Of a stretch of DNA of 64,000 bases, positions 25,200 to 37,115 are shown piece by piece (the stretch's first letter is position 1; each line of letters begins with the position of its first letter). The stretch comes from Candidatus Marinacidobacterales bacterium. GTDB taxonomy: Bacteria > Acidobacteriota > Vicinamibacteria > Marinacidobacterales > SMYC01. The DNA lies in the NCBI GenBank assembly GCA_965237955.1, contig OZ250169.1:768001-832000 (forward strand), in the 5' to 3' direction. Below the pieces are notes generated by a model. It saw nothing but the letters and a program-made list of their open reading frames with translations, was not told the DNA's origin and did no database searches. The translations under genes were made by a program, and so were the position numbers.

Positions 25200-26583
25200 G
25201 GGTCTACGCGGGTTCGTGTGGGTTGAAAACGGCATTTCTGGGTAATGGCGGAAGGAATGCCGCCACGATCTTCAGCTTGAGATATCCCTCGTCACGATAG
25301 CCGTAGGCGCGTCGTTGCAGAACACGGATTTTGTTGTTGACCCCTTCAACCAGTCCGAGACTGACTTTGTTCTCAGGATGACAGTAGGAGGCGATACCAT
25401 CCCAATGGGACTCAATCATTCCGGCGAACTTCTGGTAGGGATGCAGGCGCTGCCATTTGAGGCTGTCTTTCCAACGTGTGAAAAAGGCGCGAGCCCCGCG
25501 TTCGGTGCGGTAATCCCAGAGTTGCCCGAAGGCCTCCTTCAAAACATAGGCGGTGTTCAGGCGCCGGTTGGCCTGGAGCAACTTCTTGAGTGCGCGGCGA
25601 CCGTCCAGGCTCAGGTTCTCCCGCCGGGAAAGCAACGTGTAACGCTGCCCCTTGATATACGACCGGTCCTCGCCGCTGAGGCGTTTGTACTCACGGCGCC
25701 GGACCTCATCGAGAGCCTTTGACAGGTGACGCATGATATGAAACTTGTCGAAGATGATCCGCGCATTGGGTGCGTTGTTAATCACCGAGTTCCGGAAGGG
25801 CTTCCACATATCCATGGCGGCCAGCTTGATACGGGCGCTTTTCTTCCCGCCCAGCGCCTTGAAGAACAAATCGATGTCGGTTTCTTTGCGACCCTCACCG
25901 CCCACCCAGATGGGACGCGCCCGCTCCAGGTCGCTGACAATGACACGATAGTTATGTCCCTTGCGGATGGAGATCTCATCGATACCGATGGCCCGAGGCG
26001 CCGGCAGCCCCGCCCGCTCGACTTGCTCTTGCATGTAGAGCTTATCCAGGTCCTTCACCGTAGTGTGGTGCAGACGTTCCATCTCGGCCACCGCCTTGTT
26101 CGGCATATCCCGGCACAGCTTGCCCACATGCGTCGCAAAGCGCTGGGTGTAGCGCGGGTTGTTCGCCAGCCAGTCCAAGTGTTCTACATGCACACCACCG
26201 CACCCACGACAGTTGACGCGCCAACGCTCGTATTCCAGATAGATCCGCCAGCCTGCCAACGACAGGTCGCGGACCCGGCACACTTGCTTGTCATAGCGCC
26301 CCCGGCACCGATGCCCACAGTACGAGCACACGGCTGTTTTTTTCGCCTCTTGAGCTGGATGACGCGGGCGTATCGGTCACCGAATACACCGTTCAATCGG
26401 GCGCCAGCCACGAAACCTGGTAGCGCAAAAAGCGAGCGGATCGACTGGGGATTTTTCACTCGGTTAGCCTATCCTAAAAACGGATCACTTCTCAGCACCT
26501 GATGAAGTGCTGAATACCTTTTCCACACAATGAGTTACACTATTTCTCCGTCAGCATTCGCCCACAGATTTCCGCGTAGACCC
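25200..26583 (-). mobile_element. ISL3-family element (transposase split 26184-26459 and 25204-26331 at an A7 tract)
   Basis: IR GGGTCTACGCGG; 8-bp DR GTAGTTAT; GIDEIS, AMDMW, FDKFH and EGVNNKI motifs. Confidence 0.93.
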
Positions 26584-28405: not shown

Positions 28406-28640
28406 CGTCTCCGGTGCTCCGCAAAAACTCGATCCGTCGTTGATTCCGCAGTTTAGACATACCAGGATTGGCCGTTTCGCGGCGAGTGGTACGTCATTAT
28501 GGATCTGAAGAGGCGTTGTTGCACCGCTCTGGCTGAGAGGGTGCTTCCGCCATCAAGTGATGGAATGGACTCCTCCGCTGACATAGACGGCATCGATGTG
28601 CCAAAGTCAGTCGAATACGCATCGAAAAGGAGGAGTCCGA

Positions 28641-29672
28641 ATGAAAGATACGACGATCGCTGTGGATCTTGCAAAGAACGTCTTCGAGATTGCCATCTCG
28701 GGAGAAGCGGGGAAGGTGTCCAAGCAACTCCGTGTGAGTCGACCCAAGTTGGTGTCGTTTTTTGCCAAACAGAGCGCTGCCACCGTGCTTCTCGAAGCCT
28801 GCGGCTCTGCTCACTTCTGGGCAAGGACGTTCCGAAGGTTGGGACACGACGTCGTCCTGCTCCCACCTCACCTCGTGAGGCCCTATCGACGCGGGAGCAA
28901 GAACGACCGCGCCGACGCCAAAGCGTTGCTCGAGGCCTACAGGAACGAGGAGATTCTTCCCGTGCCCATTAAGTCCGTGCACCAGCACAGCCTCGCCGCG
29001 CTCCATCGCCTGCGCTCAGGATGGCTCTCCACACGGACCGCACGCATCAATGCCGTACGCGGGATCCTGCGCGAACTCGGATTCATCATCCCAAAGGGCG
29101 CTCACTTCGTCGTGCCCGCCCTCTTCGAACTCGTCGAAGACGCTGATTCTGATTTGCCCGACGTGCTCCGTTCGCATCTCCGTGATGCCTGCTCCGAGAT
29201 TCGAGAACTCAAGGACAAGTGCGCTGGCATCGAGCACGAGCTCAAGGCGCTCACCAAGCAGCTTCCTGAAGTCCAACGACTTCTCGCCATTCCCGGCATC
29301 GGACTTCTGACCGCGACCGCCATCGTGGGCTTCGTCGGCGATCTTCGCCGCTTCCCATCGGGGCGCCGCTTCTCGAGCTACCTCGGCCTAGTTCCCAAGG
29401 AAAACTCCAGTGGCGACATTCGCCGCCTCGGACGCATCACCAAGCGTGGCGACTCCTACCTCCGTATGCTCCTCACCCAGGGCGGGCGCGCCGTGCTCCG
29501 CGCGGCGAACGTCAGTAAGAGCCCGCCCGACAAGCTCCGCGCCTGGGCTCGGAAGGTCCACCGCTCGCGGGGACACAACAAGGCCGTGATTGCTGTCGCC
29601 AACAAACTCGCCCGGATCGTCTGGGCCGTCTCCACCCGCGAGAGTGAATTCCAGTCGCCGATGGCCGCTTAG
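28641..29672 (+). CDS. IS110/IS1111 DEDD recombinase
   Basis: AVDLAKNVF, LEACG, KNDRADA, IPGIG and YLGLVPKENSSG motifs; AGGAGG RBS. Confidence 0.95.
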   Translation: MKDTTIAVDLAKNVFEIAISGEAGKVSKQLRVSRPKLVSFFAKQSAATVLLEACGSAHFWARTFRRLGHDVVLLPPHLVRPYRRGSKNDRADAKALLEAYRNEEILPVPIKSVHQHSLAALHRLRSGWLSTRTARINAVRGILRELGFIIPKGAHFVVPALFELVEDADSDLPDVLRSHLRDACSEIRELKDKCAGIEHELKALTKQLPEVQRLLAIPGIGLLTATAIVGFVGDLRRFPSGRRFSSYLGLVPKENSSGDIRRLGRITKRGDSYLRMLLTQGGRAVLRAANVSKSPPDKLRAWARKVHRSRGHNKAVIAVANKLARIVWAVSTRESEFQSPMAA

Positions 29673-29677
29673 ACTTA

Positions 29678-31603
29678 GGGCCGCCGACAAAATAACTGTC
29701 TATTTTTGAGCACACTCTTCCTGTTTCAGGTCGTGATCGCGATGTCGTCTGGCATCACGAGAGCCTGGCAAGCTCCCTAGAAACGGAACATTTGTAGATC
29801 TTCAGCAACCAGCGCGTGTTTGACAAACGGTCCTCATTTTAGGGAGGATTACGCCTATCAAGGAGCACTTCTCCTATTATGAGACCTACGAGCTATCAGT
29901 CTGAAGATCTCGACCGCCTGTTGAGGAAGCACAAAATAGCTACCCTCGATGATTTGAAGGCAGTGTTGGGTACCGATGTGGACTCGACCGTCTTCCGAAA
30001 GCTCAATGAGTTGGCGTATCGGACAAGCTACTCCCACCGTGGTAGCTACTACACGTTGGACGAGATCGCCCAGTTCGATCGAAAAGGTCTTTGGTCGTTG
30101 CGCTCAGTGTGGTTCTCGAAGTACGGGACGTTGCTTGCGACGGTAAAAGCGTTGGTCGCGGCCTGTGAGGCAGGCTACTACGTCGACGAGCTCGAGGACG
30201 TGGTGCAGGTTGACGTCAAGGCTCCTCTGTTGAAACTGGTCCGAGAGAAAAGATTGGCGCGCGAGCAGGTGTTCGGCCGATATCTGTATCTGGCCACCGA
30301 TGTGAGCACGCGCAAGCAACAGCTCTCGGCCCGCCAGGTACATGAGGCGTCACCTTCCACGTTGGGCTGGGTCGGGGGAGTCCGCGTGCTCCCCGTGGAG
30401 TTGAAGGCTGCGATCGTTCTTTTCTACAGCCTGCTCGATGAAAAGCAGCGCCGTCTCTACGCGGGAGTCGAGGCCATGAAGCTCGGTCACGGTGGCGACC
30501 AACAGATTGCCGAACTGCTCGGGATGGATCCGAGCACGGTAGCCAGAGGTCGTAGGGAATTGCTAATGAGAGATGTTGAGCTCGACGGAGTTCGGCGAAA
30601 GGGTGGCGGACGGCGCGCCGTGCAAAAAAAACGCCAGAAGTCATCGCCAAGATCGAAGAACTCATGAAGCACGACACCGCGGGCGATCCGATGACGGGAG
30701 TGAAATGGACGCGGCGGACCACCGACAAGATTGCTTGCGAGCTAAGAAGCCTTGGTGTGAACGTCAGCAGCAAAACCGTCGGTCGACTGCTCAAACAGCT
30801 CGGCTTCTCGTTGCGGGTGAACCACAAGAAGCTGTGCGGTGCCACGTCCGAAGATCGCGATACCCAATTCGCGTGTATCGCCGAACTGCGCGAGCGTTTT
30901 GCCGCAGCTGGTCATCCCATCATCAGCGTAGACACGAAGAAACGGGAGCTGGTGGGATTATTCAAAAACGGCGGGCAGGCCTGGAACCGCGAGCCGACTC
31001 TCGTCAAAGACCATGACTTCCGTTCCGAATCGAACGGCATCGCAATCCCCTACGGCGTCTACGATCTGCTCGCGAACCGCGGGACAGTGTTCATTGGTAC
31101 CTCGTACAACACCCCGGACTTCGCCGTGAATGCCATCGAGAAGTGGTGGCGAACGGAAGGACGGCGACGCTATCCTGCAGCCCGTGACCTCGCGATATTG
31201 GCAGACGCCGGGGGCAGCAATGGCTATCGGTGTCGGGGTTGGAAGCACGGGCTTCAAACGCGGATTTGCAATCGCCACGACATCGCTATCACCATAGCCC
31301 ACTATCCGTCCGGTACATCCAAGTGGAATCCAGTGGAGCACCGTCTGTTCAGCGAGATCAGCAAGAACTGGGCGGGCAGGCCTCTCGACAGCTACGAAAC
31401 CATCCTCAAATACATCCGCACGACCACCACCTCTTCCGGTTTGCGAGTACGCGCACACCTTATCCGGCGTCGTTATCCGAAGGGCGTCAAAATCACTGAC
31501 GAGCGGATGCAGGCGCTTTCCGTTACAAAGGACCAGACTCTACCCAAATGGAACTACACCATCCGACCGTCTTGAAAACGGGAACTTATTTTGTCGCCGG
31601 CCC
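29678..31603 (+). mobile_element. ISAzo13-family element (ORFs 29879-30667 and 30664-31575; A8 frameshift tract)
   Basis: IR GGGCCG.CGACAAAATAA; DR TTA; ISVDTKK, DAGGSNG, SKWNPVEH and WNYTI motifs. Confidence 0.92.
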
Positions 31604-31649
31604 TTAGAGGCTCCACTTTCGTGTTTTCCTTTTTCCCTTCCAAAAGAGG

Positions 31650-31830
31650 CTGCGACGATACCCATCCAACTGATGGCGTACCGGTCGGACCGGCGCGGGG
31701 TCAAGCCGATAGCAACACTGGCCCTAAGAGGTCGTTCAAAGTGATTGGCTCCTCGCGCGCGGATTTTCCATCATGGCCCGGAGCACCCAAGACGCTCCTC
31801 ACTGAGGCCGAAGATACGTTTGCAGTCTGA
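31650..31830 (+). ncRNA. Putative IS1111 bridge/seek RNA
   Basis: Segments complementary or identical to the reconstituted target and donor junctions (see findings); transcript ends are approximate. Confidence 0.75.
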
Positions 31831-32249
31831 CCCACTCGTCACGACGCGATGGATGCGCAGCTTCGATGGAAGATTTATTAAGAAAGGGGCTTGACTAGAG
31901 GAGTCCAGATATGTTGCTACGCCGTATTTGAATGCTAATGTCAGCTGGCCTGCCTGTGTCGGCGAACGCCATTAATAAGGATGTCGGCGTGCACACGAAG
32001 GTGTCCCTGAACGTCAGGCACCGTGTGGCCAGCCCAGCCCGCATCGCCGAAAGAACTGCGTCTCCCGAAATCAGGCTCAAACTCTAGCACACGAGCGGGT
32101 TACGCGGCAGCCACCAACACTTGATTGCGGAAGCACCATGAATTTCCCATTCCTTGTCTTGTCACACGTATGTGTGAAGCCAAGAAAGTCGAAAGACTCG
32201 GGCTTCCCCTCGCCGCGCCGTTTGCGGTTCTCGGCAGCATAGCGGCCGG

Positions 32250-32467
32250 GGGCGCGTCCCAGTTCACAAGCTTGCCGGCGGTGAGCGAGATCCAGACGGT
32301 CAGGCTCCCACGGTTGCGTAGACCCGCCTCATATTCACGCCAATTCCTCACGCGATAGGCCTTCTTCACATACTTCCGCTGAGTGCGTTTGAAAATGCTC
32401 ATGGGGAACCTCGAATCCGTGAGTACAGGACAATTGTGGACCGAGATCGCGAGTTGTGCACCAAGGC
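32250..32467 (-). pseudogene. IS5-family (IS903 group) left end and transposase 5' fragment
   Basis: YRVRNWREYEAGLRNRGSLTVWI. Confidence 0.8.
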
Positions 32468-32580
32468 AGTAGTTTAATGCAGCGTAAAGTGTTAGCGTCA
32501 TCTCACCAACACTTAATGGCGGAAGCGCCCTGTGAGTCCCTAAAAGTAGAAATTCCATTCTCGGATTGTCGGAGGTTTCC

Positions 32581-34247: not shown

Positions 34248-34888
34248 CTACGCGGCACGGCAGTAGTAGTTGAGAATGCCCCCAAGTCGCTCTCGCGACA
34301 CGATGGGGCCAGCGTCATTCGCGCTTGCCGGCAGAGGTGTGAGGAGCTCGTTGCCAAGACCTTGGTGGTTCCGTTCTGTGTGATAGTGCACTACGTATTC
34401 GGTTACCGCTGTGCGCAGGTGTCGCTCACTGAGAGGTACGAAGCGGTCGAGACACTCTCGACGTATGGAGAGAACGAATCTTTCCGCATATGCGTTCAGA
34501 TTCGGACTATTGGCGGGAAGGCGCAGGGGCTTCACGCCTGAATCTCTCAACAGCCCACGTACCGCCTCGGTGAATAGTGGGTCCCGGTCGTGGATGAGGT
34601 ATCGCTTGCCAAGGAGGAAACCATCCCACATGTCAGTGAGGTTTCTTGCCACCTGCTTCATCCACTCCCCGTTTGGGTCCGACGTTATCCCACCGATGCA
34701 CACGCAGCGAGTGGCGATATCGATGACAAACAGGACATGGTAGCGGACGAGCCCGAACGGGTTCACAACCTCGACGGTGAACAGGTCTGTCGCAGCGATG
34801 GCGCCCCAATGAGCCTTGATGAAGGTGCTCCACGACATGCTCCTGCCCCGCTCCGGCGCAGGAACGATACCGTGCTCGGCGAGGATCC
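34248..34888 (-). pseudogene. rve transposase 3' fragment, truncated by an rve end at 34889
   Basis: [31 protein letters not shown]. Confidence 0.85.
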
Positions 34889-34909
34889 CGTCCTGTGCTA
34901 AAACTCGGC

Positions 34910-36255
34910 TGTCCTTCATCATTATTGATCCAGCGGGAATGGTACCGCTGGTGGCCCTACGACGAACGAAGAAACCCGGGTCGGCGCGCGCGGGCACTTG
35001 CCGAGATCACGCGATCAATGGGCCGCGGAGCTGGACAACGCAATCGCGAGGGACCCCAGCAATCGACGCGCAGCGACTAAACTGGGTCAGGCGGCGTCGC
35101 GCCATTCGTAGCGGTGGTGGAGCCCACTCACTCGCGGCAACGCGACGACTTTTGCGGTCGGTGATGGTCGGGGCGTGACGGGTCTTGAGTTCGGGGTGTC
35201 TTTGTCGAGACTCAAGTGGCAACGGTCCTCGTGGTAGTAGCTGATGTACAAGCGCATGAGCCGGACGAGATGCCGCTCACTGAGGACAACTACATGCTCT
35301 AACATCTCGCGGCGGCAGTTTCCGATCCAGCGTTCGGCGGTACCGTTTTGCCAAGGGCTGCGATAAGAAATGCGAACAGGCTTTGTGCCCATGGCCCTGA
35401 TGAACTCCACCACTGCAGGGCTGAAAATCGCGTCGCGGTCAAAGACCAAGTATCGTGGTGCCGTGTCGTATGGGAACGCCTCGCGCAGTTGTTGAATCAC
35501 CCACGCTGACGTGGGGTTGTACGTCGCGTTGAAGTGCAAGATATGGCGACGGCCGTGCTCGATGACGAAGAAGCCGTACAGCAGCCGTAGCGACGCCGTC
35601 GGTACGGCGAACAGATCCATCGCGGCGATGTCGTCCTTGTGGTTCCGCAAGAACGCAATCCATCGCTTCACTTCGTCGGGTTCGGCTCGGCGGCGCGGCA
35701 TGTATCGCGACACCGTCATCTCGCTGACAACGAATCCGAGCTTCGTCAGCTCAGCGTGGATACGAGGTGCACCCCAGCCGTCTTGGGCCATCGTGCGGAC
35801 GAGACGACGAATCTCGGCATCAATCCGAGGTCGACCTGGATAGCGCGGACGGGAGATCCGAGCCCAGTATCGGCGGAACCGATCTCGATTCCACCGGGCG
35901 ACCGTGTCGGCGTTCACGATAACGAGCCGGCTCGCCCACGCTGGCCACGAGCTTCGGAGCGCAACCCAGAATGCTCGGTCCGTGTCCTCGAGCGGTGGCC
36001 GGGGGCGCTCCTTCTTCAACGCCGTAACTTGCTGCCGCAGGGCCAGGTTTTCAATCACGAGGTCGGCTCGGCACCGACACATCGCCCGGATCGCACGGGC
36101 GCCGAGTGAGACGAGGAAGATGAGGACACGGAGCATGGCGGCAGAGTTTGCCGTCTCAAGACCGGGATCTCAAGCGGGAGATGCGCTCGTTGGCCGAGGC
36201 GTGAACGGTGCGTAAGTCCTTGATTTCAGGAGCGGACGGATATTGATGATGCACA
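34910..36255 (-). mobile_element. Apparently complete 1346-bp rve/integrase-core element
   Basis: Termini TGTCCTTCATCATTATT and TGTGCATCATCAATAT flank an intact ORF; no DR seen. Confidence 0.85.
35087..36136 (-). CDS. rve/integrase-core DDE transposase (the only intact copy in the window)
   Basis: AAMDLF, FDRD and NGTAER acidic triad; WGAPRIHAEL HTH. Confidence 0.9.
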   Translation of the reverse strand: MLRVLIFLVSLGARAIRAMCRCRADLVIENLALRQQVTALKKERPRPPLEDTDRAFWVALRSSWPAWASRLVIVNADTVARWNRDRFRRYWARISRPRYPGRPRIDAEIRRLVRTMAQDGWGAPRIHAELTKLGFVVSEMTVSRYMPRRRAEPDEVKRWIAFLRNHKDDIAAMDLFAVPTASLRLLYGFFVIEHGRRHILHFNATYNPTSAWVIQQLREAFPYDTAPRYLVFDRDAIFSPAVVEFIRAMGTKPVRISYRSPWQNGTAERWIGNCRREMLEHVVVLSERHLVRLMRLYISYYHEDRCHLSLDKDTPNSRPVTPRPSPTAKVVALPRVSGLHHRYEWRDAA

Positions 36256-37115
36256 CCTGATGAACTCCACCACTGCAGGGCTGAAAATCGCGTCGCGGTC
36301 AAAGACCAAGTATCGTGGTGCCGTGTCGTATGGGAACGCCTCGCGCAGTTGTTGAATCACCCACGCTGACGTGGGGTTGTACGTCGCGTTGAAGTGCAAG
36401 ATATGGCGACGGCCGTGCTCGATGACGAAGAAGCCGTACAGCAGCCGTAGCGACGCCGTCGGTACGGCGAACAGATCCATCGCGGCGATGTCGTCCTTGT
36501 GGTTCCGCAAGAACGCAATCCATCGCTTCACTTCGTCGGGTTCGGCTCGGCGGCGCGGCATGTATCGCGACACCGTCATCTCGCTGACAACGAATCCGAG
36601 CTTCGTCAGCTCAGCGTGGATACGAGGTGCACCCCAGCCGTCTTGGGCCATCGTGCGGACGAGACGACGAATCTCGGCATCAATCCGAGGTCGACCTGGA
36701 TAGCGCGGACGGGAGATCCGAGCCCAGTATCGGCGGAACCGATCTCGATTCCACCGGGCGACCGTGTCGGCGTTCACGATAACGAGCCGGCTCGCCCACG
36801 CTGGCCACGAGCTTCGGAGCGCAACCCAGAATGCTCGGTCCGTGTCCTCGAGCGGTGGCCGGGGGCGCTCCTTCTTCAACGCCGTAACTTGCTGCCGCAG
36901 GGCCAGGTTTTCAATCACGAGGTCGGCTCGGCACCGACACATCGCCCGGATCGCACGGGCGCCGAGTGAGACGAGGAAGATGAGGACACGGAGCATGGCG
37001 GCAGAGTTTGCCGTCTCAAGACCGGGATCTCAAGCGGGAGATGCGCTCGTTGGCCGAGGCGTGAACGGTGCGTAAGTCCTTGATTTCAGGAGCGGACGGA
37101 TATTGATGATGCACA
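36256..37115 (-). repeat. 860-bp tandem duplicate of 35396-36255 (truncated transposase plus left end)
   Basis: Sequence appears identical by eye at offset 860. Confidence 0.92.

Follow-up and report, generated by a model that had tools for sequence, protein, structure and literature searches.

An IS1111-group element in a region dense in mobile DNA

The window, a 64,000-nt stretch of contig OZ250169.1 from a Candidatus Marinacidobacterales bacterium, harbours an IS1111-group element on the plus strand at positions 28558..31911. It is 3354 bp long here and 1425 bp long without the interruption described below, begins with TGATGGA and finishes with CAGATA. A preliminary description of the locus had placed an IS1111-type element at about 28540..31920, and both Pfam and NCBIfam models bear out that assignment. 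The plus-strand gene at 28641..29672 encodes an IS110-family DEDD recombinase of 343 aa, in which the DEDD residues were located near D9, E52 and D89/D92 and the SG motif at S257. The protein matches the Pfam domains PF01548 and PF02371 and scores 308.9 bits against NCBIfam NF033542 (cutoff 140); its best named plasmid match is the ISPa25 family, at 46%. The same genome (G000) contains 14 identical full-length copies of the recombinase, that of the window and 13 others. A further copy is 99.7% identical and another 93%; the element's junctions number 25 on the left and 25 on the right across the genome. Near relatives of the element occur in Ca. Marinacidobacterales genomes.

The RuvC-like DEDD domain and the PF02371 domain with its SG motif are those of the IS110/IS1111 superfamily. 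According to PMC11187229, IS1111 elements are defined by subterminal inverted repeats, a long non-coding region downstream of the transposase and a protein of 330-350 aa. In addition to its 343-aa protein, the window element has a right non-coding end of about 310 bp in intact copies, and subterminal inverted repeats on the plus strand at 28565..28575, 7 nt inward of the left end, and at 31898..31907. The asymmetry of the repeats, with 7 nt outside the left one and 3-4 nt outside the right one, is that of the IS1111 group, and insertion takes place at a specific target without duplicated bases. The element is a real and well-supported addition to the IS1111 bridge/seek RNA family, a core system already described, with no new mechanism.

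Within the interval of the preliminary description lies a second transposon that had gone unmentioned, an ISAzo13-family element at 29678..31603 (plus strand). It starts directly after the recombinase stop codon and is flanked by a 3-bp TTA duplication (29675-29677 and 31604-31606). It separates the recombinase gene from the RNA region, and its removal gives the 1425-bp form that is present elsewhere; its landing between gene and RNA broke neither. Only the window copy carries it, so nothing points to movement of the composite. About 30 copies of this ISAzo13 element were found, with a CTWAG target preference. Its two plus-strand open reading frames (29879-30667 and 30664-31575) overlap around an A run, which suggests a frameshift.

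The neighbourhood is rich in other mobile DNA. The high-copy end of another insertion sequence, presumably IS5-like, occupies 28512-28539 and abuts on its left the MITE that hosts the IS1111-group element, and a truncated copy of the same sequence lies to the right of that MITE (32243-32470). An ISL3 transposase and several integrase-core (rve_3) elements, including two near-identical neighbours, are found at 25204-26331 and 34248-36996. This mobile-DNA-dense region sits between groEL/groES, pyruvate kinase and genes of no assigned function.

The target is a terminal repeat of an IS1-like family

The left arm of the target (28540..28557, plus strand) consists of the outermost 18 bp of a terminal inverted repeat. 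The repeat belongs to a 244-bp MITE of an IS1-like family, a feature that the preliminary description did not report. The right arm, which starts with TGTTGCTA, continues into the rest of the host MITE up to its other terminal repeat (31912..32137, plus strand). When the two flanks are rejoined, they give a terminal inverted repeat, for which the genome has 196 matches when up to 3 mismatches are allowed. This repeat bounds MITEs, among them the 244-bp host unit, as well as a 1.2-kb element with an IS1-like transposase, and insertions take the repeat variant downstream of that transposase. The IS1 family usually makes target duplications of 8-9 bp. As no duplication longer than 4 bp was found across 23 repeat-bounded units of the target family, and as its transposase scores below the cutoff of NF033558 (E 5e-22, 78.8 bits, cutoff 100), we label the family only provisionally as IS1-like. 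At G000:C1:3086457-3087653 lies an IS1-like element of 1197 bp with a full-length reading frame for a transposase of 355 aa. Its targeted repeat lacks 3 bp on the right side of the cut and carries no insertion.

The empty target CATCAAG-TG-TTGCTA, reconstituted in the preliminary description from the two flanks, does exist. Perfect copies of it were found in four of five sister genomes (78 in G003, 22 in G005, 15 in G006, 51 in G007 and 0 in G004). Two of four sequencing runs, one of them possibly the window's own source, contain a joint that leaves out precisely the 1425 bp of the element. These read-level empty sites may be never-filled alleles. G000 itself has no empty perfect site. Of its TCAAG|TGTTGCTA sites, 18 of 19 are filled, versus 0 of 32 TCAAG|TGTTGG sister repeats, and its other 11 empty TTGCTA-type repeats are all mismatched in the last 5 left-arm bases or in the dinucleotide. 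It is possible that the remaining empty repeats escaped by mutation, a scenario indistinguishable from the plain survival of poor targets.

Further insertions match the predicted target as well. In the five sister genomes, the left junctions that fall within the repeat number 33/33, 16/16, 4/4, 4/4 and, in G004, 4/10, and G000 has no insertion of the window element's guide type outside the repeat. Two of the G004 insertions (L043 and L044) are at TCAAG|TGTTGCT without any repeat.

A predicted bridge RNA with four guides

A bridge or long seek RNA of about 180 nt, comprising a target-binding and a donor-binding internal loop, is predicted in the right end of the element (31646..31828, plus strand; both termini are predictions). 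The four guide segments proposed in the preliminary description could be retraced on the plus strand. The 5' target guide, TAGCAACAC at 31710-31718, is indeed an exact reverse complement; with the following T (31710..31719) it is complementary to the plus strand of (A)G|TGTTGCTA, so that the match reaches 10 nt, TAGCAACACT being the reverse complement of AG|TGTTGCTA. The 3' target guide, with TCAAAGTG at 31736-31743, extends over 31736..31745; AAG-TG is its covarying part and is followed by a predicted handshake dinucleotide, AT. The 5' donor guide, TTCCATCAT at 31766..31774, is the exact reverse complement of the element's left end, as had been claimed. As for the 3' donor guide, the segment AGATACG, which matches the right end with one mismatch, is present, and its position is 31812..31818 instead of 31811-31817. 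The mismatch fits the CG dinucleotide of most relatives, and one sister variant reads AGATATG; the C is likely a relic of an ancestral CG target dinucleotide.

In 3000 approximate dinucleotide shuffles of 31640-31840, a 10-nt target match occurred 5 times, a 9-nt donor match 9 times and both together never. The two same-sense matches of the 3' guides are individually not significant (800/3000 and 286/3000 shuffles), and their support therefore comes from covariation. Among 20 non-redundant elements with both flanks, the guide-flank score was 127 for the 5' target guide, versus 73+/-5 in permutations, and 79 for the 3' target guide, versus 35+/-5; none of 20000 permutations scored as high in either case, in a test that kinship among the elements somewhat inflates. 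Target positions -1, -2 and -3 match in 20/20, 19/20 and 17/20 elements, respectively, and the donor guides follow changes of the element ends in four loci (L129, L130, L133 and L134). The 93%-identical copy in the same genome (G000:5247236) has altered target guides and a correspondingly different target. This sister element spans G000:C1:5245800-5247240, and its target is attC-like. A remnant of a third guide variant, whose target loop differs, lies at G000:C1:5560830-5561020.

Non-coding right ends were extracted from 32 of the 33 elements tried, and 29 were aligned and folded. The comparative consensus fold places all four guides within two internal loops, as the preliminary description had anticipated, and 13 of its 28 pairs show compensatory changes. 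Folding of the sequence by itself gives no significant structure (z -1.65 and -0.80) and partly closes the loops. Target and donor each have guides for both of their strands, placed in internal loops and covarying with the flanks, as expected of a bridge/seek RNA. The predicted RNA and the guide assignments proposed initially are upheld. A scan of the window with Rfam returned no family at gathering score.

We consider it very probable that the IS1111-group recombinase, guided by the 180-nt RNA of its right end, inserts at AAG|TGTTGCTA in the IS1-like terminal repeat, and that a circular intermediate, minus-strand transfer, descent from attC-targeting ancestors and one-sided tandem formation complete the picture. 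What is observed here comprises the ends of the element, its target, the matching guides and the guide-flank covariation, and the rest is our interpretation of these. The RNA would be transcribed and bound by the recombinase, and the element would be copied out as a circle with the predicted donor junction CAGATA|TGATGG. A weak candidate -35 box of a circle-junction promoter, TTGACT (31891..31896, plus strand), is 18 nt from TGGAAT across that predicted junction; a promoter scan of the linear form gave nothing above chance at this place. No joint of right end to left end, as in a full circle, is listed among the contigs of 7 distinct runs, contigs being prone to drop rare forms. The natural covariation suggests that the system would be programmable.

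Alternatively, DNA structure or protein context, such as the binding of the repeat by the IS1-like transposase, might mainly set the target, with the RNA guides in a secondary role. The guides read about 11-13 bases only, yet nearly all insertions fall in the terminal repeat, and relatives target folded attC sites; both observations would fit such a model. The G004 insertions L043 and L044, with the target sequence and no repeat around it, speak against it, as does the avoidance in G000 of the near-identical TTGG sister repeat, and we find this explanation improbable. Selection of the target by the RNA guides is our preferred reading.

Junction dinucleotides and the strand probably transferred

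The 'TG core' of the preliminary description fits the window element's own junctions, both of which read TG. It is not a rule of the family: left and right dinucleotides are unlike in 21 of 26 elements for which both junctions are available, with 7 differing at both positions, and the right one is target-derived. In G001, empty attC-like sites read CATC|CC and the filled left junction reads CATC|TG, which indicates that the left dinucleotide belongs to the element and the right one to the target. At the tandem junctions described below, the dinucleotide of the partner site is retained in every non-TG case.

In IS621, the top strand is cut 3' of the core (PMC11208158); the other strand is cut too, and repair of mismatches may follow. 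If the minus strand of the window element is read as the IS621 'top' strand, the cut position, the guide order and the guide lengths would all map onto IS621. We did not find this mapping stated in the text passages searched. The minus strand would be cut just left of TG and then transferred; since the product junctions would follow this cut, donor and target dinucleotides need not match. That products follow the cut of one strand agrees with the top-strand transfer reported in 10.1101/2025.10.25.684509 for CazIS110, with biased repair as an alternative.

This alternative amounts to the full two-strand route of IS621 with a truly shared TG core, the junction pattern of the relatives resulting from biased mismatch repair of heteroduplex. 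It draws on the presence of TG in both donor and target of the window lineage, on the cutting of both IS621 strands with perhaps subsequent repair (PMC11208158), and on the empty sites in reads, which could be excision products as well as never-filled alleles. Given the unlike dinucleotides of most elements and the retention of the partner's bases at every non-TG tandem junction, we hold it to be rather unlikely and favour transfer of the minus strand.

In 22 of 25 elements, the AT that follows the 3' target guide is identical to the two bases that come next in the donor; it is nearly invariant, with one covarying case. The pattern resembles the handshake described in PMC13626964. Covariation of an equivalent handshake in the donor loop is unsupported: it agrees with the target in just 3 of 25 elements.

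Ancestry and probable retargeting

Most relatives insert at attC-like sites. A strict GTTRRRY motif, as in attC sites, occurs in 10 of 26 right flanks. The flank of the nearest sister copy is similar, with TTGTTA. Sites of ISKpn4, ISPst6 and ISPa25 are given as |CG-NN-TTGTTAG in Table 1 of PMC13604230, and several homologs share this form in their flanks. On the basis of the published site form and of the sister copy, the lineage has likely been retargeted from attC to the terminal repeat; its ancestors would have been attC-targeting, with changes confined to the target loop. The tree resolves poorly, with 12 of its 24 inner branches left open, and the direction of this change rests on the majority state and on the nearest sister copy. 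An attC site as the window element's own target was considered and rejected, the target being a transposon terminal repeat. Natural retargeting is already in print for ISEc11/ISXne4. Further IS1111-type right ends with differing flanks were noted in the sister genomes G005 and G007 (L155, L157, L161, L172, L173 and L181). An integron integrase above its family cutoff lies at G000:C1:3346207-3347146; no link to the window locus was made.

The attC-targeting ISPa25, ISKpn4 and ISPst6 resemble the window element in protein (46% for ISPa25) and in their downstream non-coding region. They also share the placement of the top-strand match 5' of the bottom-strand match and insertion left of an NG dinucleotide followed by TTG. 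Unlike them, the window element targets an IS1-like terminal repeat instead of attC, with TG instead of CG as dinucleotide, and its 5' guide lies about one base away from the position it has in the sister copy. Published targeting of another transposon's terminal inverted repeat is that of IS4321 and IS5075, of the IS1111 family, in their case a Tn21-family repeat; the likeness noted here is one of target type.

Tandem duplications at the cut site

Aberrant junctions were found on both sides of the reaction. Donor-side tandem duplications, in which the right end is joined to an internal site, number 6 in G000 and 9 in loci of other genomes, and one further joint of this type was found in an unrelated run. 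Target-side duplications, which end at the left target arm, number 11 in G000, at 2 independent loci. They include a 7-unit array of host DNA upstream of an element copy (G000:C1:2861941-2862400), each unit of 48-62 bp stopping exactly at the left target arm. All tandem duplications end exactly at the cut, and G occupies the second position in 17 of 17 distinct partner sites (16 and the one from the unrelated run), with a background of about 0.28. One non-tandem junction (L164) lacks this G. Copies followed by several partial right-end duplications, with the RNA region multiplied, are present at G000:C1:3051900-3054440 and G004:C9:514550-517320. Among the five sister genomes, none of 6 matches to a target-side pattern was an array, the pattern covering only C or G at the third position. 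Fourteen left-arm junctions to unrelated DNA in G000 were left out as uninterpretable; they include repeat variants and other insertions, as well as one junction that is found again in sister genomes.

We propose that the duplications, with their ends at the cut, likely arise from one-sided, half-match reactions at either insertion junction. Replication slippage, homologous recombination or assembly error could produce tandem arrays without the recombinase, the genome being repeat-rich and the target-side arrays being known from two independent loci of one genome, from assembly instead of spanning reads. Such processes would hardly stop every duplication exactly at the cut site, select a G at the second position of all distinct partner sites or vary the unit length within one array (48, 61 and 62 bp), and we judge this alternative improbable. 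One-sided reactions of the recombinase remain our preferred explanation. Two bioRxiv preprints (10.64898/2026.08.14.744561 and 10.64898/2026.08.31.748434) report on donor-side tandem units and half-match recombination, and PMC12288879 on partial circles; with the IS110 tandem expansion of the two preprints, the duplications share units that end at the donor end and a single matching arm. The host-DNA arrays at the target arm and the link to target exhaustion go beyond that expansion, and neither was found in the portions of the published work searched.

This link stems from the distribution of the donor-side tandems, which are present at 7 of 29 independent loci in the two genomes without empty perfect targets versus 1 of 45 in the four genomes that have them; 2 of the 10 G004 tandem junctions were inferred from position only. 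In G004, 6 of 10 left junctions are outside the repeat, versus none of the window element's guide type in G000, which counts against a simple rule of target exhaustion. With two genomes compared to four, we regard the link as a lead and not as a result.

Implications

Compared with IS621 of the IS110 group, the window element shares a DEDD recombinase with an SG motif (C-terminal match E 2e-08) and a two-loop RNA of similar length, and the guide layouts would correspond if the minus strand is the 'top' strand. Unlike IS621, the window element has its RNA in the right end and long subterminal repeats, and its relatives display no evident invariant shared core. Furthermore, the base kept at off-target sites is equivalent to position 8 of IS621, not 9.

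The locus offers a natural case of RNA retargeting within a known family, and its record is unusually rich: some 20 guide-target pairs can be read, the same genome holds a retargeted sister copy, and both filled and empty sites were seen over six genomes. The dinucleotides of the relatives suggest that the product is determined by the cut of one strand and that the cores of donor and target may differ. Albeit unproven, this bears on the debate between two-strand and single-strand mechanisms and on target range. Aberrant junctions accumulate where the perfect targets have run out, an equally unproven pointer to off-target behaviour. It is conceivable, if doubtful, that once all perfect targets are filled the recombinase turns to one-sided reactions, building host-DNA arrays at the target arm, duplicating its own RNA-bearing end and inserting off target, by single-strand transfer without a shared core. 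If this were true, the six related genomes would represent a natural experiment tying target supply to fidelity, and the clade would be a source of core-independent programmable recombinases.
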